From Candidatus Latescibacterota bacterium (lineage in GTDB: Bacteria > Latescibacterota > UBA2968 > UBA8231): 64,000 nt of DNA. Below, in pieces: positions 1 to 16,185 of this stretch. Under the pieces are notes generated by a model. The model worked only from the letters and a program-made list of their open reading frames with translations, made no database searches and was not told where the DNA came from. How positions within the stretch are numbered: the stretch's first letter is position 1; each line of letters begins with the position of its first letter. The position numbers were made by a program, and so were the translations under genes. The stretch is taken from the NCBI GenBank assembly GCA_965242865.1, contig CBDETK010000013.1, positions 3,040,001-3,104,000 of the forward strand, in the 5' to 3' direction.

Positions 1-372
1 CTACCGTAAGTTGCGGTTGGTTTCGGGTTGCCAAGCGCGGATGATCGCGGCCTCCAGCTCGCGAGTCTCCTCTTCACTCTCGGTGAATGTTACTGAGAAT
101 TTTACTAGATCGGGGAACATGCGGAGTTGGCGTCGGAGTTTGGGATTGGTCTCGTTTGCCAAGTGCTCCAGCAAGCGGCGGCGGACGCAAGTTGCGGACA
201 TGCCGATGTAGAGCCGTTCGGGGGCACTTTCTCCGGGCAGCCACAGGGCGTATAGGCCGCAACAGTCCTTTGGTAGCGTTTGCACCTCCTCTCGGTTGAA
301 TGGGCGCAAGTTGTTTTCTAGCTGATACTTCTTGGCGAACAAATTATTGGAACGGCAGATCACCTTGTGCAT
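1..372 (-). CDS. GIY-YIG nuclease family protein
   Basis: GLYALW...LYIGMS...VRRRLLEH...LEAAII..PETN matches the GIY-YIG motif order (GIY, YIG, R, E, N); overlaps the 3' end of the methyltransferase; start uncertain. Confidence 0.75.
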   Translation of the reverse strand: MHKVICRSNNLFAKKYQLENNLRPFNREEVQTLPKDCCGLYALWLPGESAPERLYIGMSATCVRRRLLEHLANETNPKLRRQLRMFPDLVKFSVTFTESEEETRELEAAIIRAWQPETNRNLR

Positions 373-3169
373 CTTCTTTCATCCTTGAGAGGGCAGAAAG
401 GACGTTTTGCCACTCGGTGACGAGGTTGTTGAAGACGACCGCGTTTTGTGCGTCGCCTTTGCGGTCGTAGTGGTTGTAGAGAATGCGCGCCAAGCGCTCG
501 ACGGATTCGACGTTGCCATTCATTTCCCGCGCCACCACACCCGCACCCTCGATCCCTCGGCCTTCCTCGTGGTTTAGGTGGTACGCCATGCGGAAGCATC
601 CTTCCCACGCGGTTCCATTGCCGAGGGTCAGTGGGCGGCTGTCGCCAAATTCATCGAGCGGCAACAGCTTTACCCGGCCCCCTTCGGCCGTGAGTAGGCC
701 GTCCAAATTTTGCAGTTTGCTGATGGCTACGTTTTTGGCGCGGGATAGCGTCTCGGCCTCGCCGTACTGGCCTTCTTCGTAATCGTGCTGTTTGAGCCAG
801 TCGAGGCAGAAGCGGCTCTCTGCATCCAAATCGCCTTCCTGTCGCTCGTCGTAATCGGCGATGGCTCGGTTAATGGCCGCTAGGGCCTCGCGCACTGGCA
901 CTGGCTCGCCGCTGATGGTCTCGACCCGTGCGTAGCGCGAGTAGATTTGCATTCCGGGGCCGATGGCGGCTTGTGCTAGATCGGTTGGGGCAATGTGTCT
1001 TTGTTGCGTGAGTTGGTCGAGGGCTTCGGGCAGTTCTTTCGCCAGCGCGTCAAAGAATTGGCGGCGCGTGGCAATGGGCGCATCCTTAGAGCGTGGACGG
1101 CAGACGAGGACGACGGACGAGGCGAGGGCGTTGGTATTCATCGCATTGGATCGGTTTCCCATCTCAGTTCGCATGGGCCAAGTGCCGATCATTTCAAAAC
1201 CAGCCGAGACAATGGCGGATAGCATGGTTTCCCAGCCGGTGGAGGCTCTGCCTGCGCGTTCCTCCTCCTGCTGTTTGTAGGCGTAGAAAATGGACGATGG
1301 GAACTCAGCCGAGCAGCGTTCCCGTATCAACCGCAACGTCTTACTTAGCTGTTGCTCAAATTGTTGGCTGTAATTTTCAAAACGGAATCGATTGGCAACC
1401 ATTTCTTCGCTTTTGGGGGTCAGTATGCCAGCAAACATATCGGGGTAGGCGTTGCGGAGTAGCGGGCGCAGCCAGACATAGAAAAAGTCGGATGAATCGG
1501 CGTAGTGGATGTTATCGTAGTAGGGGGGATCGGTGACGATGACGGGACCGTTTTGCGCGTGAATGGTGGTAGATGCGTCGGCTTGGTGTGCTTCTCCGTC
1601 GTTCGCATCGGCGGGAAGGCGGTCGACGGCTTTAGCTATCCACTCGATTTGGCCCGTCCAGTTCTGCGTTGAAGTCGAGAAGATATTCGCTTCGGCAAAA
1701 TCCCAAACCATCCCAATCCCTTGACGCGAGAAAACCCCTTCAACCTTTTCCCCGGAATTGTGCCAGTGGGTGAAACTGCAACCACTGTTTGCAGTCCTAC
1801 CAAGGGCAAGCGCAAGATACGTGCAGATCGCATCGGCGTATTCTCCTTCCACCTCATCCTGTTTGATTTGATTACGAACCTCTCCCAGCAAGTCGCTGAA
1901 TGTAGTCAGCGCGGTTAGCTGGCGTTCCGTGAAAAGCTGGTGCCACTGTGTAAACCCATAAATTTGTACACTAATGCTTCTTGCTTGTTCAGGCAGGCTG
2001 CCACTAGGCCGCCAAGCAGGGGTAGCTTTCTGTGCAACCTTGATATGCTCGTCCACCGGCGAAAGAAACAGTCGCTTGCGGCTCCCCTCGGCGACAATCG
2101 CCGTCATAACCTCCCCTATGTTGCCCGCTCGCCCTTGCTCGCGCACATAAGGCAACTTCACCACACTGCCGCAGCCGAGACAGGTCGCGCCGTTGCGGTT
2201 CACCGTGCCGCTTTCGGGAACGTCGGCGTTGTGGTTCTGTACCACAAAGGCGATGCTGTTTCTCTCGCGATCAATGACGGGCCTAGTCCAATGTTCGTTG
2301 CCTTTCTTCTTCGACAATTGAAACGTGGCCATCAGCGGCATGGCAATGCGACACGCCGGATTCGGACAGGGCACAGTCCGCGCCCACAGCCACGCGATTA
2401 CAGTAGCATTCGTTCCGTCGGACAATCTCACCTGCGGATACAAATGCCCGATCCGCTTGAACGCCTCCTCGCGCATCCAGCGACCATAGTAACGGATGTC
2501 GTCGGCCAACCCCGCCGCACCGCGCCACGGAACGCGCCGCTTCCTGCCCTTGCCCACGGTCATACCCATCCGATCCGCATCCGGGTTGACCGGAGGTTGG
2601 CCGCTGAATTTCGGCGGCAGTTCGATCAACGCCTTGTTAATGAGCACCGCCACCGGGTTGAGATCAGAGGCGACCGCTCGCAGCCCAAGTCGTTGCGCTT
2701 CGAGCGGTATGGAGCCGCCGCCCGCAAAGGGGTCGTAGATCGGACGGACCTTGTCGTTGAGATAGCGCAGCACTTCCGCCGGATCGGTGGGCGCAGTTTC
2801 GCCGCGGGTACGCGCCACCGAGCGAGCAATTTCGTATCGCGCTTCCGCCAAGCGTTCCCTACCTGCAGTCTTACTTTCGTCGGTGCTCTCCCACTTAACA
2901 AGCTCCCGGATGATGCCATGCAGCCGCTCGCGCTCGGCCCGTTGGGCCTCCTCCGTAGGAAACTCGTCAGAACAATCGGCCGGGTCGTCCACCATGCTAG
3001 CAAAAATGACGGCGCGACAAGCCGCCAGCGGACGCCGCGCCCACCACAAATGCAGCGTCGAAGGATGGCCGTGCCGAATGGATTTCTCGCGGGCGGACTC
3101 GTGGTTGATGACGTCAAGAGGCAAGTCCACCTCAATGAGCTTGCGACGATATGGGGTTTGAGCGGTCAT
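344..3169 (-). CDS. DUF1156-domain adenine-specific DNA methyltransferase with Zn ribbon
   Basis: HLWWARRPLAACRA (DUF1156), YDPFAGGGSIPLEA (SAM binding), TDPPYYDNI (catalytic DPPY), CPNPAC...CLGC. Confidence 0.9.
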   Translation of the reverse strand: MTAQTPYRRKLIEVDLPLDVINHESAREKSIRHGHPSTLHLWWARRPLAACRAVIFASMVDDPADCSDEFPTEEAQRAERERLHGIIRELVKWESTDESKTAGRERLAEARYEIARSVARTRGETAPTDPAEVLRYLNDKVRPIYDPFAGGGSIPLEAQRLGLRAVASDLNPVAVLINKALIELPPKFSGQPPVNPDADRMGMTVGKGRKRRVPWRGAAGLADDIRYYGRWMREEAFKRIGHLYPQVRLSDGTNATVIAWLWARTVPCPNPACRIAMPLMATFQLSKKKGNEHWTRPVIDRERNSIAFVVQNHNADVPESGTVNRNGATCLGCGSVVKLPYVREQGRAGNIGEVMTAIVAEGSRKRLFLSPVDEHIKVAQKATPAWRPSGSLPEQARSISVQIYGFTQWHQLFTERQLTALTTFSDLLGEVRNQIKQDEVEGEYADAICTYLALALGRTANSGCSFTHWHNSGEKVEGVFSRQGIGMVWDFAEANIFSTSTQNWTGQIEWIAKAVDRLPADANDGEAHQADASTTIHAQNGPVIVTDPPYYDNIHYADSSDFFYVWLRPLLRNAYPDMFAGILTPKSEEMVANRFRFENYSQQFEQQLSKTLRLIRERCSAEFPSSIFYAYKQQEEERAGRASTGWETMLSAIVSAGFEMIGTWPMRTEMGNRSNAMNTNALASSVVLVCRPRSKDAPIATRRQFFDALAKELPEALDQLTQQRHIAPTDLAQAAIGPGMQIYSRYARVETISGEPVPVREALAAINRAIADYDERQEGDLDAESRFCLDWLKQHDYEEGQYGEAETLSRAKNVAISKLQNLDGLLTAEGGRVKLLPLDEFGDSRPLTLGNGTAWEGCFRMAYHLNHEEGRGIEGAGVVAREMNGNVESVERLARILYNHYDRKGDAQNAVVFNNLVTEWQNVLSALSRMKEDAQGDLPFQ

Positions 3170-3200
3170 ATCAGCTTATTTTGCCGCTGGTCTAACTGAA

Positions 3201-4172
3201 TTAGTTCGGTTGGTTAGGGCTACCAAGATCCATCTGAGCCGTTTGTGGAGGGGGGGAAGGGACATGCTGCTTGATAAACGCCCGACCAGTATAGTTTTCA
3301 ACGATCTTTATCGCAGCAGTCCCGGTAAACGTATGAGTAGCTGCATGAAATACCGATAGACTGAGGTCTTGTAACATATTATCATCTTCAAGCGCAGTCA
3401 CCTTCAGTTGGTTCTCCAAGAGATCTTTTCGTGATATGTGCCGGCCATGGCTCTTGAAATTCTTGTGGTTGGCAAGCCATTTAGAGATTGACGATGCCTG
3501 CTTCGAGCGGTCGGGACAGTTTTTGAACATGTAGGTTTCCAGCCATGTCTTTACGAGTTCCTTAGACAACTTCAACGCTTCTTCACACTGCACCAAGAGA
3601 TCGGGACCGTATTGGTTCAACATTGGCAGCCAAGCCGATAGTTTTGCCGGATCAGAGCATTCTCGCTGGGCTCTGTCGAACTGATCTAAAACGGCCTGTG
3701 CTGGGACGAATCGTGCTCCTAGAGGAGTAGTGAGCGGAATCTGCGGGTCGGTTGGTCCAAGAAAAGAATGCTTGCCCAGCACAATCTCATCAGCGGCACA
3801 TGAAATCATAGTCGCCGCCGACATTGCAAGGTGAGGAACGATTACTCGGATATGAGAGAATCGAGACCTTAGATAAGAGACTATAGCCTCGGCCGCTTCA
3901 GGAGAGCCCCCAGGGCTATGTAGAATCAGGTCGAGGGCACCGCTTAGTCCCCACGTTACTTCCATGAGGGCGTGAACATCCTCGTCGCTGATCGAAATAG
4001 AAGCCGCCGGCACTTCCTTCTGAATCCATCCCGAGGCATACAGGATAACATTACGTCCAGTGTGCCGGTGGAGTTGCAGGAGATATTTTCTTCGAATGCC
4101 GTCAAAATCGGGGGCGGCATCCTGTCGGCTGGGCGCAGCAAGTTCAGCTAGAATTTCACTCCATATTGGCAT
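3201..4172 (-). CDS. SDH_sah / ClpP-fold serine protease
   Basis: LILHSPGG, AMSAATMI, LGPTDPQ and SHGRHI motifs; RBS AAGGAAGG upstream. Confidence 0.85.
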   Translation of the reverse strand: MPIWSEILAELAAPSRQDAAPDFDGIRRKYLLQLHRHTGRNVILYASGWIQKEVPAASISISDEDVHALMEVTWGLSGALDLILHSPGGSPEAAEAIVSYLRSRFSHIRVIVPHLAMSAATMISCAADEIVLGKHSFLGPTDPQIPLTTPLGARFVPAQAVLDQFDRAQRECSDPAKLSAWLPMLNQYGPDLLVQCEEALKLSKELVKTWLETYMFKNCPDRSKQASSISKWLANHKNFKSHGRHISRKDLLENQLKVTALEDDNMLQDLSLSVFHAATHTFTGTAAIKIVENYTGRAFIKQHVPSPPPQTAQMDLGSPNQPN

Positions 4173-4196
4173 GGATAGGCCCTTCCTTATACAGGC

Positions 4197-4406
4197 TTAC
4201 CGGGCGTTAGCATGGTCCGTCGTTATTACAACTTCCGGGTGTTTGGTTGCAAGACGGTACGGTTCGAGGCCCTTATCCGCCTTCTGGTAATTTTGGTAAA
4301 CCTGCATAACTTCCCGGACACCTGGACGGGCTAGTGCCTCCTTTAGCATAGCAGCATGTTCTTGCTCACGGTTGGAACCTTGAGGCTTTGCTGTGTGTTT
4401 AGCCAT
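4197..4406 (-). CDS. 69-aa hypothetical protein immediately upstream of the protease
   Basis: Strong RBS AAAGGAGA; ends 24 bp before the protease start. Confidence 0.7.
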   Translation of the reverse strand: MAKHTAKPQGSNREQEHAAMLKEALARPGVREVMQVYQNYQKADKGLEPYRLATKHPEVVITTDHANAR

Positions 4407-4451
4407 AGAGAATCTCCTTTTGAGTTGGGTCAGTATTCGCTATCTCGCTTC

Positions 4452-4571
4452 CTAAACGTTGGGCTCTGCCTTGTTTAGGTTCATTTCTTTAGCCCAGCGC
4501 AGATCGTGGCCGACTCCGCGCAGACGAGAGACGATGTGTCCCGATATATTTTCGTCGGCCAGTATCCTCAT
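4452..4571 (-). pseudogene. Truncated DUF5615 PIN-like toxin (N-terminal 39 aa)
   Basis: Manual translation MRILADENISGHIVSRLRGVGHDLRWAKEM...; its ATG overlaps the TGA of an upstream broken ORF (ATGA). Confidence 0.65.
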
Positions 4572-4686
4572 GGTCTTTCGCCGTTTTGCCAGATCATCTT
4601 GTATCGGCCACCTATTGCGGCGTCGAGTTCCTCCGAACTGATCTTACCCGCTCTATATATTGGGCCATGTCCATAGTTTCCTCTGT

Positions 4687-5271
4687 TTACTTGTACAATA
4701 CAGCACAGCATTTTTTGTATTTTTCCCCACTGCCGCAAATACACGGATCATTTCTGCCGATTTTCTCTAAGTCTTGTCTGTATTCTGCAAAGCCTTTTCC
4801 ACCATGTGAGTATTCGCCACATGGTGGTATTTTTCTGTATTTATCAAAATATGCTTGCCAAACAAAGTAGGGATAAACTTTATTAAGGACGAATTTTCGT
4901 AGCGTTATATTGGTATTGAAATCTATGCCCAAGCAACAGCTATTATTACTTGGGTAAATATGTAAATCTATGATTGGTTTTCCAATTTCCGCTGCTAGCT
5001 TTTCTATTCTTCCTCCAGTTTCAAATACTTTTGGCCATTCGCTTTGGGTATCATTGAGAAGGATTTTAATTTCGTAACAATCGCGTAGGCAGTCGCTACC
5101 AGATGAACAAGGGATGATTTCCCAAATATCCTCTCCTTTCTTTTTTGACTGTTTTTGATAGCGAGCACTAAAATTCAATTCACCCCTGATACAGTTCTCC
5201 TTCTCATCGTAATAAAGATTTGGGAAATATTTTTGAATCTCTGTGAATTCTTCTAGAGTATATTCAATCAT
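4687..5271 (-). CDS. Prokaryotic E2/UBC-like protein with C-terminal SEC-C motif (CBASS ancillary)
   Basis: WPKVFETGG...[12 protein letters not shown] (E2-like Cys motif) and [18 protein letters not shown]; likely start MIEY at 5271 overlaps the CD-NTase stop. Confidence 0.75.
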
Positions 5272-6217
5272 AACTATAAGGTTTGGTCGCACCAACTGCG
5301 GGTATCGAAGAAGTCGATTCATTCAGTTCACCAAAGTCGTCGCCGAATAGCTTTCGCCACTTATTAACACTCTCGTTGTGATCTTTTTCCTCAAATGCCT
5401 CATTGATCCTTGTGTTATAGGAATCAAACTTGTCTCGGAAATTAGCATATTTCTTTTGATCCCAATGCCTATTGAAATCCTCTTCGGGCAACACAGGATT
5501 TTTCACAGTTGGCATTGATTTATTGTCTCTCAGGAAGTCATTTATCCGATTGGAAAGAGTCTTCAATGTCGTCGGCAAATCGGAAAAGTCGCTAGAACCC
5601 TTATCGAGGGTACTAATTTGATTCCCCAAAAGGGTCGTCAGCAGTATAGATTTCACAGAAAAATTGTCTTTATGGTCACGTAAAAACTTGATAAGACTAG
5701 TTGTTTTTCTAAAATTATTATCCCCAACAACTTTGTTTTTATTTCTTAGCCAAGTTGTATATCCGTCGCCATCTGTCTTCTCATGTCGTTCTTCGTCTTT
5801 ATTACAAATGTAGCAAAATTCTCCATACTCAATACAAGGAACAACATCTAAGTGAAAATCACCAGCATAGTCAACAGTCACACATCGTGAATTTATCCTA
5901 ACTATGTCCTTATAGGTATTATTCTCTTTGAACACGTCATGTACTTTTTTTACATAATCGGTGAATGTATTCGGATCAAAGTCGTCGTCTTTGACAAAGA
6001 CTAGTATATCAGCATCGAACTCATCATTTTCTCGGACTGGCTTGATTATGGTCTGATGGGCATAAGAACCTTGTTGGCTATATTTTTTATAACCACTGAG
6101 TTTGGCCTTGAGCAGATCAGTGATTGTTTTTACTCGCCTATCTAGTGTACTTTCCCTAGACTGGTTCAGGTTGACATGATCGGCTAAGAAGTCGTTGAAA
6201 TACTGTTTGTGTTTCAT
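5264..6217 (-). CDS. SMODS-type cGAS/DncV-like nucleotidyltransferase (CBASS CD-NTase)
   Basis: [12 protein letters not shown]...[43 protein letters not shown]. Confidence 0.88.
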
Positions 6218-7143
6218 TTTTTGGCCTCCAAAGCTAGGAAATTTGAGATTTTTGTATTATCTCGGGTGAATTCGGATTTTGCTAACTCTATTAATGTAGG
6301 GATACATCGATAATCGTCAAGTTCACAGTAATCGATAGTAGGATTGACCCTAAAAATCATCTTTTGATTAATCAAGGACAAAACCTTCTGAGGGTATTCA
6401 GTCTGGCATGACATTAAAGAATTTATCAGTTTTGATTTTTTCCATCCATTTAGAAATCCCCATCTTCTAGCAGCCTGATAGACTTGTCTTGCCTGTCCAG
6501 CTCCCAAAGACAGAACCCTGATGCTATCTGGATTTACGCAAAATTTTCCTATTGCATCAGTATAACCTACTAGCGAAGGATTGTTCGCCCATATCCCCCC
6601 ATCGCAAACCAAAGTACCTTCTATATCTACCGGATCAAAATAGATCGGTGCTGAACAAGAAGCTAAGACGGCCTTATACAAAGGCACTTCTCCATCTCGT
6701 ACATAATCTTCTTTCAGTTGTCTTTTTAAGTAAGATGACTTAAAAAGATGGAGCTCTCCTATACTTATATTTGTAGCATTGATAATAAGAGGCTTTTCTA
6801 TTTCTCCTAATTTAATATCTCCCAATTTTTTGTTGAGAAACATAGAGAGAGATTTGGAATCATATTTAGATCTGAGAAGCCCAAAGAAATTAAATCTTTT
6901 TTGAAAAATTTCTGAAGCATTTTTTTGATAGTCATCTACGAGTTGAGACAAATCATATTTTACTGCGATAGCCGCAGCTACGATACTTCCAGTACTAGTA
7001 CCCACAATGAGATCGAAGACCTCATGTATATTTAACCTAGCCTCCATAAGTGACAACATTTTTGCGGCAAAGACCCCACGTACTCCACCGCCATCAATGC
7101 TTAAAACCCTAAACACCTTTTGAGGCAGGTTTTGATCGTCCAT
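6214..7143 (-). CDS. Patatin-like phospholipase, CBASS CapV-like effector
   Basis: DGGGVRG, GTSTG, DGGIWANNP; ATGA overlap with the CD-NTase. Confidence 0.88.
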   Translation of the reverse strand: MDDQNLPQKVFRVLSIDGGGVRGVFAAKMLSLMEARLNIHEVFDLIVGTSTGSIVAAAIAVKYDLSQLVDDYQKNASEIFQKRFNFFGLLRSKYDSKSLSMFLNKKLGDIKLGEIEKPLIINATNISIGELHLFKSSYLKRQLKEDYVRDGEVPLYKAVLASCSAPIYFDPVDIEGTLVCDGGIWANNPSLVGYTDAIGKFCVNPDSIRVLSLGAGQARQVYQAARRWGFLNGWKKSKLINSLMSCQTEYPQKVLSLINQKMIFRVNPTIDYCELDDYRCIPTLIELAKSEFTRDNTKISNFLALEAKK

Positions 7144-7154
7144 AGCTTACCTCT

Positions 7155-10100
7155 CTAGCTGTCTGTGCCGGAAGAGGTCAGGTCAATGCCAAGCTGTCCA
7201 CTGTTCTCCCGCACGGCCCGCGCCGTGCTCTCGGAGAAGCCATCGGCCTTGTCCGCCGCGATGGTAATGGTAACTGTTACCGCACCACCGCCATCGCGTA
7301 GGGTGCGGATAATCTCCTCGCGCAACTGGTTGACGTCGTCCAACGATACGTCGTTTGCGGTTGTCTTGCTGGCGACGATGCGCGTAGGGCCGTGCGGTGC
7401 AGGGAGCGGCGTCCCCGAATCGACGATTGTAGTAGGTTCAGCGGGGCCTGTGTCGTCGGTCGAGGATTCCAAGTCTTTTGGTGTCTCCTCACCTTCCGCG
7501 ACTACCAACTCCGCCATCTCGGGATTGACCAGCAACGTCGCGCTGCGCTCGCCCGCATTAGACGACGAGCTACTGATCGGCTCGCGGAAGCGCATCCCCT
7601 CGTACTGCTCCCCGTCGTAGGACTCGGCGTAGCCGAAAGCCCCGTCGGGCACCCCTTGTTCGATACAACGTTGCAGGACCGCTCTATTTCGCAGGCGGTG
7701 CATGTACACATAGCGGGTCATCATGTCCCACAAGCCATCTATGCTAATGTGGTCTTGGTGGTTGGGATTGTTCCATACGTACTGCTTCAACAGGGTGGCC
7801 AACGCCGAAGGGCTTATGTGTTCTACGAGGGCCTCGTCCCCGATGAACTTGGCGAAAGCATTGTCAATAATCTCGCCGTCCGTCGCACCAACCTGAGAGA
7901 CGGCCAAGCGATATTCAGCCTTCTGCGGATCGTCTTGAACCGGGGCGATGGCCCAGCGGTACGCCCCAATTAGAGCAGCCCGCACCTCGGATTCCGCTGT
8001 CCTGAGACTGCTCTGAGCCTGTTTGAGCCGGTCGCCCGAGAGGTTTTCAATGCGACGGTCGCCGTTGACGATGGAATGCCAAGCGAGGAACGTCTTAACC
8101 CGGTTGTTCAGATCGCGAATCTCGTCTTTTTTCGCGGCCAGAAAGAGCAGGGTATTCCTGCGGACCCGGAGGGCGTCGCCACAGTGTTGTAGCATTTGCT
8201 GCACCGCTGGCTCGGCGTGGTCTTTCTCGCTGGCGCGGCTCGGCAGCGACCTATCAGGGAGCAAAAGCACGAGGCGCACCGCATCGGCGTCGGGCACGGC
8301 CTTTGAATCGGCTGGGCAGACGATGACGTCTGAGCGGCGTCCAACCGCCTCTTGCAACTGCGCGACGATGTGGTCGTTAATGTCTCGGCCGCTCAGGGCC
8401 GCGGCGCGATCGGTGGCGACCTTGTTGAGGTTTTCCTCGGCGTGGAAGTAGTACCGCCCCTCGCTACTGTAAAGGTAGTAGAGATCGCTGCTGATTTGGC
8501 CGAGGGCATCGTTGTACACCGAGACTCCGTGTTTGGGCTGTACTACGCCGAGGCGAATCTGCCGAGCATCAATGCCTTTGACGGCCCCGCTGCCGGAACT
8601 GCCGAGGAAAATTGTGCGGGCTAGGCGTCGAGCGGCTCCGCCGACCTCGCCAAATCGCTGGGACGCCCGGTCTATGTTGTCGGTTCTGAAGTTGTTGCCA
8701 TCAACCTCGGACAGGACTGGCCCCCATTGGCTACCCAGCAGCCTGACAAACTCGTTGGCCAAGGCCGTATCGCTCAAGGTCAGATTCGCCGGCATGATCA
8801 GCGGGGAAGCATCGTTGTCTAAATACAGGCGGCTGACGCAGTTGGCCATCATCCGCAGGACGCCGCGCGTGCGCTGGAACTGGGTAATAGACGACCAATC
8901 CAAATAGAGGCGGTCGAAAATCTCTGGGTGAATGGGGTAGCAGGCTCGCAGCCGCTCGAGGTAGTGATGCTCGCTGACCTCGCGGGGGTACTCGTTGCGC
9001 GCCCGACTGTACATAGCGGCAAAGGCTTCGCAAGTGCGATCCCTAGCGGCCTCGTCCATGTCGTTTCCAAACAGTCTGCGGCGCACCACTTCAAACGCTT
9101 CGTTGGTCTCAAGCGGTTCCCACACGGCCTCAATGCGCCCCAAAAGGTGCTCTAGCCGGTTGAGGGCCTCCATACCGGCCTCGCTTCCCGCCTCAACGCT
9201 GCTTTCGGGCAGGGTTACGACGAGGGCCGCGTTGTTGTTCCTGCGGACGGCTTGGGTGAGGGCTTGGACGAAGGTTAAGATGTTGTCCTGTGCGTTCCCG
9301 GCATTGCGCGCGTATGCCACCAACTCGTCGATGAGGATGACGCACGGCCCGACGTGGGCGAATAGCTGGTCGAGCTGGGCACCGCCGGGCGCGGTCCCCT
9401 GTCGCGCCGCTTGGCCGACTAAATCGTAGGCGTCTTGACCGCCGAGTTGGTACGCCATCGCGCCCCACAGGGTGTTGAGCGGATCGCCGTTGGGGGTTTG
9501 GGCGGCATCGGTGGGCGAAAGGTACGTGCCGTCGAGCACGGCGACGCGGGCCTGAACGCCAAGAGTTGGGGCCAGCCCGGCCTCTTCTATAATGCCGCGG
9601 ATCTCGTTGTAGGGCTGCTCGGATTGTCCCTTGCCGCTCGGATTGGTCAGGGCGTCGGTGCTGTTTACTAGATGATAGAGCGCGATGAGGCTGTGCGTCT
9701 TGCCGCCGCCAAAGCCCGTTTTGGTCTGGATAACCGGATCGCCCCCGTTGCCACTGAGCCGCTGCAAGGTGTTCACTAACAGGGTGCGGATGCCCGGGGT
9801 GATGTACGTGTGGTTGAAGAAGCTGACTGGATTGCCGTATTGAGTGGCGTCGGCGCGCCCGTCGTGGACTTGTTGGAGATCGGCCGCAAACTCGGCCTCT
9901 TGGAAGGTGCCTAGGGCCACATCGGGATTGGGACGAATGACCGTCCGCCAAGGAGCGAGATCGCCGGTCGGACGGGATGCTGGCGGTGCGGGTTGGCGCT
10001 GGGTGGAGGTCTCGCGTTGGCTGGCCGGGCTGTCGAGTTGGTTCCGAATCGTTTCTACGGCCTGCTTCTGCTTGGGTGCATTGATTTTGCCGATCACATC

Positions 10101-10497
10101 GGCGATGAGAAACAGGTGGGTTCGGACGAACTCGGCCTCTAGGTCTTGGGGGCCGGGATGAGCCGCCTTGTCGCGGGCTTCCTTTATCAGCCATAGCGCG
10201 TTCTGGACCCCCCGCTCGTCGCCAAAGGGCTGTTGGAAGAGGCCGCTCCACTTTCTGCTGATGAGGTGGGGAAAGTCGCCAATGTCTATGGAGGCCGCTG
10301 CATCGCGCCCGTTCTTGCTCAGGTTGAGGCTGAACTGCTCGGCCTGTCTGTGATTTAGCCCCTCGCGGATCACCTCTTCAACCTGCTGGCCCCGCACCTT
10401 CTTTAGCGAGCGGACAATAAACGGGCGCATGGCGTCGCGGTAGATGTCTAGCCCCTTGTTGAGCGCGTCCCTGTTGGGGCGGTCTATCGTCGTATTC

Positions 10498-10508
<11 letters not shown>
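7155..10508 (-). CDS. Swt1-like HEPN domain + DUF499 AAA+ ATPase
   Basis: N-terminal Swt1-like region with RDKAAH (R-x4-H); EFAADL, Walker A GFGGGKTH, Walker [21 protein letters not shown]; non-ATG start overlapping the sufB end. Confidence 0.88.
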
Positions 10509-11961
<1,453 letters not shown>

Positions 11962-14442: not shown

Positions 14443-16185
14443 CTACCGAATCTCCAGCGCGATGGTCGATGGCGTCGTCAATCCCATGTAGATGAGGTCT
14501 GTGACGCCTGAGCCATCGAGGTTGGCATACTGAATCTTTCGCGTACTATAGTCAGCCCAGTACATCTTTTTTTCGCCCGCCATATCCGGCGGCCCCAGCG
14601 CGATGCCAAACGGATCAATCAATCCCCTGTTGGAGACGAGGGTTTCGACGTTTCTGCCATCGAGGTCGGCCCGCTGAATTTTTATTGAGTTCAGGACCGA
14701 ACTATTGCCCCGGTCCGTCCAGTACATCTTTCTGCTCCACAGATCCAGCGCGATGCGCCCTGGCCTAAACAACTCATTTGGTCGAAACATAGTACGGAGT
14801 GTTGAGCCTTCCGTAACGCCCTCTAAGGTGACGAGGATTTCGTCGTTTCTGCCATCGAGGTCGGCCCGATGAATGTTATTCCAACCCTGGTCTGTGAAGT
14901 ACATCTTTCCGCCCTCCACATCCAGCGCGATGCCCGATGGATCCGCCAATCTCATGGTGCCGAGGGTTTCCATGTTGTCGCCACTTAGGTCGGCCCGCCG
15001 TATCCTATTTCCGCCCGTTTCCGCCCAGTACATCTTTTTGTTTTCGCTCTCCAGATCCAGCGCGATGCCCGATGGCCAATCCAAGCCCGTTTTGATAAGG
15101 GTGTCGACGTTTGCGTTTTCGCCATCTAGATCGACCCGATGAATTTTATTCCCCGTTAGGTCCGTCCAGTACACCTTTCTGTTCGCCAGATCCAGCGCGA
15201 TGCCCGATGGATTCGATCCCGGGATGAAGGCGAGGGTGTCGACGTTATCCGGGTCGGCAGGGTCGGCACGATGAATCCTACCCGTGCCATAGTCCGTCCA
15301 GTATAGGGCGATCAGTTCGCGGATTGGTTCCTGCGGTCCCGTCGGTTCTGGTTCTTCTGGATAGACTTGGACGGTTTCGACGCGGGGGTATTTCTCTATT
15401 ACCGCTACGACGCGGAGGCCGCTTGCCATTGAGGCGGCGAGTTGCTGGTTCGCGGCGTGCTGGCTGAGGGCGTTTTCCATCACGCCCAGCCATTGCAAGT
15501 TCGTCAGGCTGGCCAAGGGACTGACATCCGCAATCTCGTTGTCTCCTAGCTGGAGCCATTGCAGGTTCGTTAAGCGAGCTAACGGCTGCACGTCGGTAAT
15601 CGCGTTGCCCCACATATCCAGTTTGCGCAAGCGGATCAGGCTGGCCAGCGGGCTCGCATCCGCCACCTTGTTACCCCACAACGACAACGTTTGAAGGTTG
15701 ATCAAACTGGCCAACGGCTGCACGTCGGTAATCGCGTTGCCCCGTAGATACAGCGTTGTCAGTGCTGTTGCGTGTTCGAGGCCGGCCACGCTCTCAATGT
15801 TTTTATAGCTCGCGTCGAGTTCGGTCAGGGCGGCCAAGTCCGCCGGGGTCAGGGTCCCTTGCGGGCGATCCAGTGCCTCCCGCACCGCCCGCTCCAAATT
15901 GGCGTCGGCGAACTCCACGGTGGCCGCTTGGGTGCTGTCAGCATCAGCTTCGGTCTGGGTGCTATCGGCGTCAGCGTCGGTCTGGGTGGTGTCGGGGCTT
16001 TCGGGGGCGGGCAGCCCGTCGGTAGCGGTGTAGGCGTCGTCGCCCAAGAACTCGCACAAGGAACAAGTGGCTTTGCCGACCGGCCGAGAAGCCACCGGCG
16101 CGGAGTCCGAGCAGCCCGTCCAAGCAGCGACGATGCCCAAAAGGACGAACGCAAACAGGGTTTTGAGAGATTTCAACGAAAGCAT
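14443..16185 (-). CDS. Lipoprotein with internalin-like LRRs and LDL-receptor class B (YWTD) beta-propeller
   Basis: Lipobox WTGC; FADANLERAVREAL cap; 22-aa LxxLxLxGNxIxDVxPLAxL repeats; six KMYW(T/A)D-like repeats. Confidence 0.9.
   Translation of the reverse strand: MLSLKSLKTLFAFVLLGIVAAWTGCSDSAPVASRPVGKATCSLCEFLGDDAYTATDGLPAPESPDTTQTDADADSTQTEADADSTQAATVEFADANLERAVREALDRPQGTLTPADLAALTELDASYKNIESVAGLEHATALTTLYLRGNAITDVQPLASLINLQTLSLWGNKVADASPLASLIRLRKLDMWGNAITDVQPLARLTNLQWLQLGDNEIADVSPLASLTNLQWLGVMENALSQHAANQQLAASMASGLRVVAVIEKYPRVETVQVYPEEPEPTGPQEPIRELIALYWTDYGTGRIHRADPADPDNVDTLAFIPGSNPSGIALDLANRKVYWTDLTGNKIHRVDLDGENANVDTLIKTGLDWPSGIALDLESENKKMYWAETGGNRIRRADLSGDNMETLGTMRLADPSGIALDVEGGKMYFTDQGWNNIHRADLDGRNDEILVTLEGVTEGSTLRTMFRPNELFRPGRIALDLWSRKMYWTDRGNSSVLNSIKIQRADLDGRNVETLVSNRGLIDPFGIALGPPDMAGEKKMYWADYSTRKIQYANLDGSGVTDLIYMGLTTPSTIALEIR

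Follow-up and report, generated by a model that had tools for sequence, protein, structure and literature searches.

A three-gene ATPase, methylase and GIY-YIG locus without a linked helicase, carrying nested cargo in the suf operon of a Candidatus Latescibacterota bacterium

The stretch of DNA analysed here, called the window below, comprises 64,000 nucleotides of Candidatus Latescibacterota bacterium (assembly GCA_965242865.1, contig CBDETK010000013.1, positions 3,040,001 to 3,104,000 of the forward strand). At one end of it lies a candidate defence locus whose core consists of three genes: hmaC for a DUF499 ATPase with a HEPN domain, hmaB for a DUF1156 methylase, and a small gene for a GIY-YIG nuclease. 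Between hmaC and hmaB sit two cargo modules, of which one is a cyclic-oligonucleotide-based antiphage signalling system (CBASS). All named open reading frames (ORFs) are read from the minus strand, and their content, order, co-orientation, tight packing and positions are as described in a first-pass annotation of this DNA. From the upstream host gene onwards, the features are:

10498..11961, minus strand: sufB, host gene at the upstream edge of the island (Pfam SufBD).
7155..10508, minus strand: hmaC, core gene 1, N-terminal Swt1-like HEPN fused to a DUF499 ATPase (Pfam HEPN_Swt1 29 bits, DUF499 91 bits; PADLOC HmaC 828 bits).
6214..7143, minus strand: patatin (CapV-like) CBASS effector, cargo 1 (Pfam Patatin 102 bits; PADLOC phospholipase effector 264 bits; NCBIfam CBASS_lipase 205 bits, cut-off 200).
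5264..6217, minus strand: SMODS CD-NTase of 317 amino acids (aa), cargo 1 (Pfam SMODS 119 bits; PADLOC cyclase 403 bits).
4687..5271, minus strand: E2 with SEC-C, 194 aa, cargo 1 (PADLOC E2 89 bits; Pfam SEC-C 37 bits).
4452..4657, minus strand: DUF433-DUF5615 (PIN) remnant, the last 29 codons of a DUF433 gene and the first 39 codons of a PIN gene.
4452-4571, minus strand: the DUF5615 PIN scrap of this remnant, 39 aa (Pfam 25.5 bits).
4197..4406, minus strand: 69-aa protein of no family, cargo 2 (no match in Pfam, PADLOC or NCBIfam).
3201..4172, minus strand: SDH-type ClpP-fold serine protease, cargo 2 (Pfam SDH_protease 65 bits; NCBIfam Clp_like_SDH under cut-off).
344..3169, minus strand: hmaB, core gene 2, DUF1156 amino-methyltransferase (Pfam DUF1156 103 bits; PADLOC HmaB 1005 bits).
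1..372, minus strand: small stand-alone GIY-YIG nuclease, core gene 3 (Pfam GIY-YIG 24.6 bits, over cut-off).

The gap between the ATPase and patatin genes is 11 nt, the patatin and CD-NTase genes overlap by ATGA, and the CD-NTase and E2 genes overlap by 8 nt; the likely start of E2 is the ATG at 5271, which overlaps the CD-NTase stop, the longest ORF beginning at 5322. PADLOC gave no match for the protease, the 69-aa protein or the GIY-YIG protein. Could such a nested locus be a product of assembly? Four of the 19 listed sequencing runs were compared with the window. In run X1, which may be the source sample, one contig spans 1274-9711 with no difference, and in run X4, from another study, a contig aligns without gaps over 3677-9704, at 51 differences. 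An assembly break, the risk raised by the first-pass annotation, or a chimera is ruled out by these contigs. Where the runs state a habitat, it is sponge metagenome.

To which family does the core belong? The two large proteins had been assigned to the systems with DUF499 and DUF1156 that are related to bacteriophage exclusion (BREX), and this holds: they belong with Hma, the Type-1 BREX-related (BR) subtype, with 828 and 1005 bits against the PADLOC HmaC and HmaB models, versus only 141 and 86 bits against the DUF499 and DUF1156_MTase models. Hma has been described as a set of helicase, methylase and ATPase (Payne 2021, PMC8565338), and all three BR subtypes are defined with a Swi2/Snf2 helicase (PMC12839542). 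In the window the DUF499 AAA+ ATPase and the DUF1156 N6-type methyltransferase are both present, and the Swi2/Snf2 helicase(-nuclease) HmaA is missing from the locus, which thus falls outside Hma/Type-1 BR as defined. Pfam and PADLOC detected no Type-2 (DUF3780, HKD-helicase) or Type-3 (PglZ, iSTAND) BR gene among nine window and eight island proteins.

The first-pass annotation had suggested that the helicase may lie past the left edge of the window. No helicase gene exists, however, in the 17,786-nt island (about 17.8 kb) that interrupts the suf operon. A profile built from seven HmaA-like helicases found no match in 51 related loci located by their ATPase, in window 1-25000, in the 40 kb to the left, or in 40 regions located by their nuclease. 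As a control, the same profile matched all eight loci of a sister clade, two of them outside the profile; HmaC of this clade is 33-37% identical to that of the window. A helicase left of position 1 is therefore ruled out by gene inspection and profile together. The only full SNF2+NOV_C helicase of the source genome is found 229 kb off (C13:3279327-3282602), inside a complete DUF499 system of its own (L013, C13:3265081-3282602), in which genes for an HATPase, a C5 methylase and ABC ATPases are embedded in the core and whose DUF1156 methylase and DUF499 ATPase are about 28-30% identical to the window counterparts. The PADLOC HmaA model was also run genome-wide, with 4 of the 51 loci left out and at most 11 candidates scored per genome. 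Among 47 genomes with the trio, whose completeness is not given, there is no match at E<=1e-20 in 8, a weak partial match in 11, one of 250-275 bits in 4 and a strong one in 24. An HmaA match of more than 480 bits thus exists in the source genome and in 24 of the 47 others, and the strong matches inspected adjoin hmaB and hmaC genes of their own.

Is the three-gene arrangement peculiar to this genome? The ATPase search gave 51 loci in Latescibacterota, Chloroflexota, Poribacteria and one spirochaete fragment, and the order hmaC > hmaB > GIY-YIG is kept in 45 of them, one of which (L040) is an internal deletion. Three of the six exceptions lie at contig edges, two have a shortened hmaC and no hmaB, and in L051 the GIY-YIG gene stands 13 kb further, behind a second hmaB. 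The reverse search, with a 35-row GIY-YIG alignment, gave matches in 18 of 168 genomes from the phylum of the source organism, 11 of 401 in the phylum of genome G062 and 59 of 151 in that of G056. Around the strong matches of the own phylum, the one in the window counted, hmaB is found within 1.5 kb in 14 of 15 cases, and the remaining one is at a contig end. In the other two phyla 20-kb regions were inspected for 36 of 66 matches (G056 phylum) and 4 of 11 (G062 phylum). These 40 nuclease-first regions contain the full trio in 32 cases, the nuclease beside a whole or partial hmaB in 4, an unrelated DUF499 system 8 kb away in 1, and the nuclease alone in 3, two of which are distant matches. Of the more distant GIY-YIG matches, with 354 representatives, four genome matches (L121, L122, L265 and L266) were inspected for context, and these have no hmaB. 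A metagenome scan with the same alignment returned two loci only, both trios, and the nuclease had no match in a plasmid collection. On a FastTree phylogeny of HmaC, one long branch parts 50 trio-clade rows from 8 helicase-linked rows; this tree is midpoint-rooted without outgroup, and the support of the root branch is 0.3 on one side and 1.0 on the other. On the HmaB tree 41 trio rows group with a support of 0.81, L013 being the outgroup. HEPN-HmaC, HmaB and GIY-YIG, in this order and without a linked helicase, form a fixed core in three phyla. Two of the trio loci (L082 and L227) have a second, different hmaB ahead of the GIY-YIG gene, which may give one system two specificities.

The functional motifs of the three proteins are intact. 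HmaC has a HEPN Rx4H motif at residues 112-117, Walker A at 265-271 and Walker B at 391-395; Walker A is identical in all 50 trio-clade rows and Rx4H is kept in 49 of them, as it is in 7 of 8 rows of the helicase-bearing sister clade. HmaB has FAGGG at 148 and DPPY at 547, the latter in 41 of 41 rows. The GIY-YIG residues G39, Y41, Y55, G57, R66, H70, N76, E107 and N119 are invariant in 48 of 48 rows, and the Tyr, Arg, His, Glu and Asn among them form the catalytic set of the family. Cys62 (window about 187-189, minus strand), in the context C-[VLI]-R-x-R-L, is equally invariant. The predicted structure of the nuclease (predicted local distance difference test, pLDDT, 86) is closest to the GIY-YIG domain of UvrC (Z 10.6, root-mean-square deviation 1.9 over 86 residues), followed within 1.2 Z by I-TevI, T4 EndoII and Eco29kI (Z 9.4-9.5). 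Its best NCBIfam matches, Cho and UvrC, are far under cut-off. Fold and catalytic residues place it in the GIY-YIG superfamily, and its standing as the candidate nuclease, proposed from the sequence alone, is supported. Compared with four close relatives, the ratio of nonsynonymous to synonymous substitution rates (dN/dS) is 0.15-0.20 for hmaC, 0.12-0.16 for hmaB and 0.10-0.16 for the GIY-YIG gene, and these values indicate purifying selection on all three core genes. The start of hmaC is less regular. The gene is without the GTG start of its relatives and runs head-on into the end of sufB (window 10490-10510), where in-frame GTG and TTG codons are found, with GGAGG six bases upstream of the TTG; the junction is gap-free in three runs. 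Translation of hmaC probably starts at one of these codons inside sufB.

Which of the proteins would read the target? In the same four pairwise comparisons, HmaB residues 361-520 have a synonymous divergence (dS) of 0.94-1.68, versus 0.23-0.82 in the flanks, and the dS of the nuclease gene (0.23-0.76) tracks these flanks. Such a pattern indicates that the block has been exchanged between relatives and the nuclease has not. The block lies between both methylase motifs, where a target-recognition insert is placed in PMC12839542, and it is probably the target-recognising part of HmaB. Since the block is exchanged while the nuclease is not, specificity is likely to be read by the methylase, with the nuclease as a generic blade.

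The interval between ATPase and methylase had been interpreted as a cargo slot, and comparison bears this out. The hmaC-hmaB gap is 3,985 nt in the window; it exceeds 300 nt in 29 of 45 trio loci, reaching 5.3 kb, and the slot is empty in the other 16, so that a fixed content without variable cargo is ruled out. The gap between hmaB and the GIY-YIG gene exceeds 300 nt in 9 of 45. In a scan of 79 chosen ORFs out of 604 unlabelled ones, the slot contents of relatives included DUF433/DUF5615, SieB, ABC ATPase pairs, NYN (HEC-09), DUF6978/DUF1828 (PDC-M24), DUF2335, Panacea, HicB, Fic and PIN genes, and their defence cargo also includes OLD-type ATPases. Both the slot and the idea of back-up roles have been published for Hma: embedded genes occur in 62.7% of 1,485 systems, and back-up roles are discussed with PrrC-EcoprrI as the named precedent (Payne 2024, 10.1101/2024.01.29.577857), and insertions were reported in about 66.5% (Liu 2024, PMC11232893).

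How was the cargo of the window acquired? Positions 4484-4654 are 95% identical to the DUF433/DUF5615 junction of locus L035, and this indicates that CBASS has replaced the front of an older DUF433-DUF5615 pair and the 69-aa/SDH module its back. A 58-aa ORF at 4568-4744 has no Pfam or PADLOC family, and only its last 29 codons belong to the DUF433 remnant. A strain of about 98% identity in run X6 passes from hmaC straight into the DUF433 remnant and skips 4655-7182 (one contig, with 41 letters on the short side). The locus thus has the embedded, variable and co-oriented cargo of Hma, strain-level loss included, and records three successive cargo layers, the CBASS and the 69-aa/SDH pair being best explained as recent, independent passengers over the older pair.

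The CBASS cassette consists of a CD-NTase, an effector and a single E2, without E1 or JAB, as in E2-CBASS, and the patatin motifs GTSTG and DGG are intact. Its GC content (patatin 37%, CD-NTase 38%, E2 36%) differs from that of the core (58-61%). None of the 45 related trio loci has CBASS in the slot; of the 12 further CD-NTase matches that a search of 168 genomes gave, 10 keep the order patatin > CD-NTase > E2-SEC-C and none is directly behind hmaC. Matches of the CD-NTase in the PDB are weak (best E 1.8e-10). The protein ends in KPYSYD, and all 11 copies of the cassette end in KPY(A/S)x with no terminal Gly, the residue which in the E2-CBASS of PMC12948482 (Xiao 2026) is conserved, lies on an extra C-terminal motif and serves conjugation. 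Our guess is that conjugation might take place at a small Ala or Ser in place of Gly. No account of CBASS with SEC-C was found in the literature listings searched. The source genome contains a second patatin > CD-NTase > E2 cassette (L099, C13:2838840-2841477), 34-48% identical and with an interrupted E2 frame, and a third CD-NTase/patatin locus (L100, C13:4165284-4167900).

The SDH protease of the second module (GC 51%) has the motifs SPGG at 86-89 and MSAAT with Ser118, and scores 0.98 to SDH clusters of the ESM Atlas; no solved relative was found by sequence. Upstream of all six other SDH matches of at least 73% identity lies a homologue of the 69-aa protein, and three of these pairs adjoin hmaB; the pair occupies the same slot in L043, L044 and L051. 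For more distant SDH matches, a different small ORF ends at the protease start in 16 of 23, which may in part be chance. A complex of the two proteins predicted without alignments scored 0.01, a value that speaks neither for nor against contact. The literature listings searched gave no account of SDH proteases in defence; it is plausible that the pair is a stand-alone module. A distant SDH protease is also embedded, together with ABC ATPases, in a DUF1156/DUF499 pair elsewhere in the source genome (L096, C13:5466539-5477182), which has a frameshifted methylase and no helicase match in 35 kb. DUF499 systems carry SDH proteases as cargo more than once.

The whole island splits the suf operon for Fe-S assembly, with sufB at 10498-11961 and sufC 17.8 kb downstream, past the left end of the window. 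To the left of position 1 follow a DUF6884 gene, ORFs of 178, 360 and 306 aa, a BrxD-like ATPase, a TGT-family gene, an AAA_21 ABC ATPase and a 160-aa ORF, and then sufC, sufD and sufS. Six co-oriented genes right after GIY-YIG, from DUF6884 to TGT (L001:14746-19981, contig C13:3034746-3039981), recur as a block in L035, L037 and L102. They are possibly a defence module for 7-deazaguanine DNA modification, with weak DpdA matches; no account of DUF6884 in such modules was found in the literature listings searched. The AAA_21 ABC ATPase with its 160-aa partner (L001:12751-14870) has PD-T4-4/PARIS-like matches, and the same pair is hmaC-hmaB cargo in 7 of 45 loci and stands alone at the sufB-sufC junction in four genomes. 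Among 24 sampled genomes of the same genus, 5 have a window-type hmaC within about 1.1 kb of the sufB end and 1 has no sufB match; in the other 18 the junction is empty (24-60 nt) in 6 and carries an insert of 0.9-5.5 kb in 12. The sufB-sufC junction (window 10498 to L001:12712), with an insert in 17 of 23, is thus a hotspot of defence cargo in part of the genus. An apparent 3' scrap of hmaC directly follows sufB in L172 and L178, and no integrase was seen among the island genes scanned. Beyond the locus, window 14443-16185 encodes a protein with leucine-rich and YWTD-like repeats and a signal-like N-terminus, which we take for one of the eukaryote-like repeat proteins that sponge symbionts commonly have.

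What could the three-gene core do? We think it probable, though well short of certain, that the trio is a restriction-modification-like anti-phage system which derives from Hma/Type-1 BR and acts without the Snf2 helicase, with restriction directed by HmaB. HmaB would methylate a host DNA motif through its exchangeable recognition block, and HmaC, whose DUF499 ATPase is of the ORC/CDC6 type, would act as scaffold. The GIY-YIG protein, small and presumably sequence-nonspecific, would be brought to unmethylated sites by HmaB and HmaC in complex and nick or cut the invading DNA in place of a helicase-fused nuclease. The HEPN RNase on HmaC would be a last-resort abortive effector, and the hmaC-hmaB gap a tolerant, co-transcribed sink which gains and loses self-contained defence cassettes. 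Several observations weigh against this interpretation. The label of recognition block for HmaB 361-520 rests on position and variability, and the best sequence and fold matches of the nuclease are repair enzymes, Cho and UvrC. Two of 38 strong nuclease-first regions (L229 and L264) show no hmaB or hmaC of this clade, and the counts above come from related sponge-type metagenome-assembled genomes; they are not independent events, because the genomes are related and several searches returned some of them again. The source genome has, 229 kb off, the complete DUF499 system that includes an HmaA-like helicase, so that help in trans is possible in this genome. In Halomonas, finally, the HmaA nuclease is essential for defence (PMC11232893), 15-19% of hmaA loci have no hmaB or hmaC, and phage from HmaB-overexpressing cells behaved alike; HmaB as a self mark of the restriction-modification type is thus not established.

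One rival explanation is that the core works by abortive infection. The HEPN RNase of HmaC would be the main weapon and HmaB with the nuclease a sensor or guard, the nuclease for example nicking modified or unmethylated DNA and the ATPase reading the signal, so that the infected cell is killed and the DNA is not restricted. With no translocase, a GIY-YIG domain on its own might do no more than nick, judging by the domains of UvrC and I-TevI, and this counts in its favour together with the near-complete conservation of Rx4H in the trio clade. HEPN-DUF499 has also been proposed as a suicide effector (PMC12839542). However, the HEPN motif is kept in the helicase-bearing sister clade, and HEPN thus did not take the place of the helicase; an exchanged block, as in HmaB, is what one would expect of a restriction specificity. 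We regard this explanation as rather unlikely. An improbable one, which develops the guard role suggested in the first-pass annotation, is that the CBASS and the protease are coupled to the Hma core as guards and are triggered by phage inhibition of the methylase or ATPase, on the model of PrrC and EcoprrI. Nothing links the CBASS to guarding of the methylase. The tight co-oriented packing, the precedent in Payne 2024 and the recurrence of the 69-aa/SDH pair in the slot of three relatives would agree with such coupling. A CBASS that is in the slot of none of the relatives, has ten further cassette copies away from hmaC, is missing from a near-identical strain and differs from the core in GC content would not, and neither would a slot that is often empty.

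Might the trio instead depend on another system? It would then have lost its helicase and need HmaA from another locus, or be a remnant. The HmaA matches above 480 bits in the source genome and in about half of the others, the lost start of hmaC and the broken copies L040, L076, L078 and L080 would be in accordance with this scenario. Against it stand the eight genomes in which the scoring of all candidates gave no HmaA match, the strong HmaA genes that adjoin their own partners, the purifying selection, the third gene fixed across three phyla, and the in-frame TTG with GGAGG that remains at a gap-free junction; we give the scenario little chance. Least probable of all, and by our estimate very improbable, is that the trio does not serve defence and is a repair or epigenetic module, with a Cho/UvrC-like enzyme nicking methylated or damaged DNA. 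It would explain why Cho and UvrC head the sequence and fold matches, but EndoII, Eco29kI and I-TevI are nearly as close in fold, and the patchy presence (in 18 of the phylum's 168 genomes), the variable sites and defence cargo such as HEC-09, PDC-M24 and OLD-type ATPases are not what a repair module predicts.

If restriction directed by HmaB is the function of the trio, BREX-like ATPase-methylase complexes may direct cleavage without a translocase, and specificity may be reprogrammed by a swap of the methylase block. The single experimental study of Hma found defence in HmaA alone, with the HmaA nuclease needed and HmaB without effect on T4 (PMC11232893). A natural form with HmaB and HmaC and without HmaA opens their role to a direct test, since the three proteins of the trio would have to account for any defence. 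Nested cargo is ordinary for Hma, and by its embedding the 69-aa/SDH pair is a candidate for defence.

How does the locus compare with known systems? Like Hma (PMC8565338; PMC11232893), it has HmaB and HmaC of the same PADLOC models and co-oriented cargo between core genes; unlike Hma, it is without HmaA, has the order hmaC > hmaB > GIY-YIG and a conserved 120-aa GIY-YIG protein as third gene. With Type-1 BR (PMC12839542) it shares the HEPN-fused DUF499 protein and the DUF1156 N6-type methyltransferase, and DUF3780, PglZ and iSTAND are not seen among the window and island proteins scanned. The embedded defences of Payne 2024 also lie between hma genes, and relatives of our locus have HEC-09 and PDC-M24 matches; CBASS and SDH, however, occur zero times in the main text of that source, and the host system here lacks a helicase. 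Compared with E2-CBASS (type II short; PMC12948482), whose CD-NTases are mostly of clade G, the cassette likewise has an effector, a CD-NTase and a single-domain E2 with His...Cys-Leu-Gly and no E1/JAB, but its CD-NTase has 317 aa versus 407 in SmCdnG and its E2 has a SEC-C zinc motif. With Eco29kI, T4 EndoII, I-TevI and UvrC/Cho the nuclease shares the fold (Z 9.4-10.6) and the catalytic residues, but it is a bare catalytic domain, without a recognition domain and tied to an ATPase-methylase pair. The auxiliary nucleases in PMC12839542 are PD-(D/E)XK, HEPN, HNH, TOPRIM, HKD, PIN and Schlafen, and 'GIY' occurs zero times in its main text. The main texts searched for Hma, DUF499, DUF1156 or BREX-related with GIY-YIG, a search outside which the supplements of PMC12839542 and bioRxiv lie, contain no description of a helicase-less GIY-YIG form; the single paper found with DUF499 and GIY-YIG uses the latter for EVE fusions only. 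Thus nesting is already known for Hma, and the helicase-less GIY-YIG core, widespread in these lineages, is apparently undescribed. The published BR subtypes differ in their nuclease (REase, HKD or PglZ). There is, in our judgement, about an even chance that the trio is a fourth DUF499 BREX-related subtype, one of helicase-free restriction, in which an ATPase and a methylase with a swappable block aim a 120-residue GIY-YIG nuclease, and which is widespread among sponge symbionts from three or more phyla and located here in a suf-operon hotspot with a 69-aa/SDH module.

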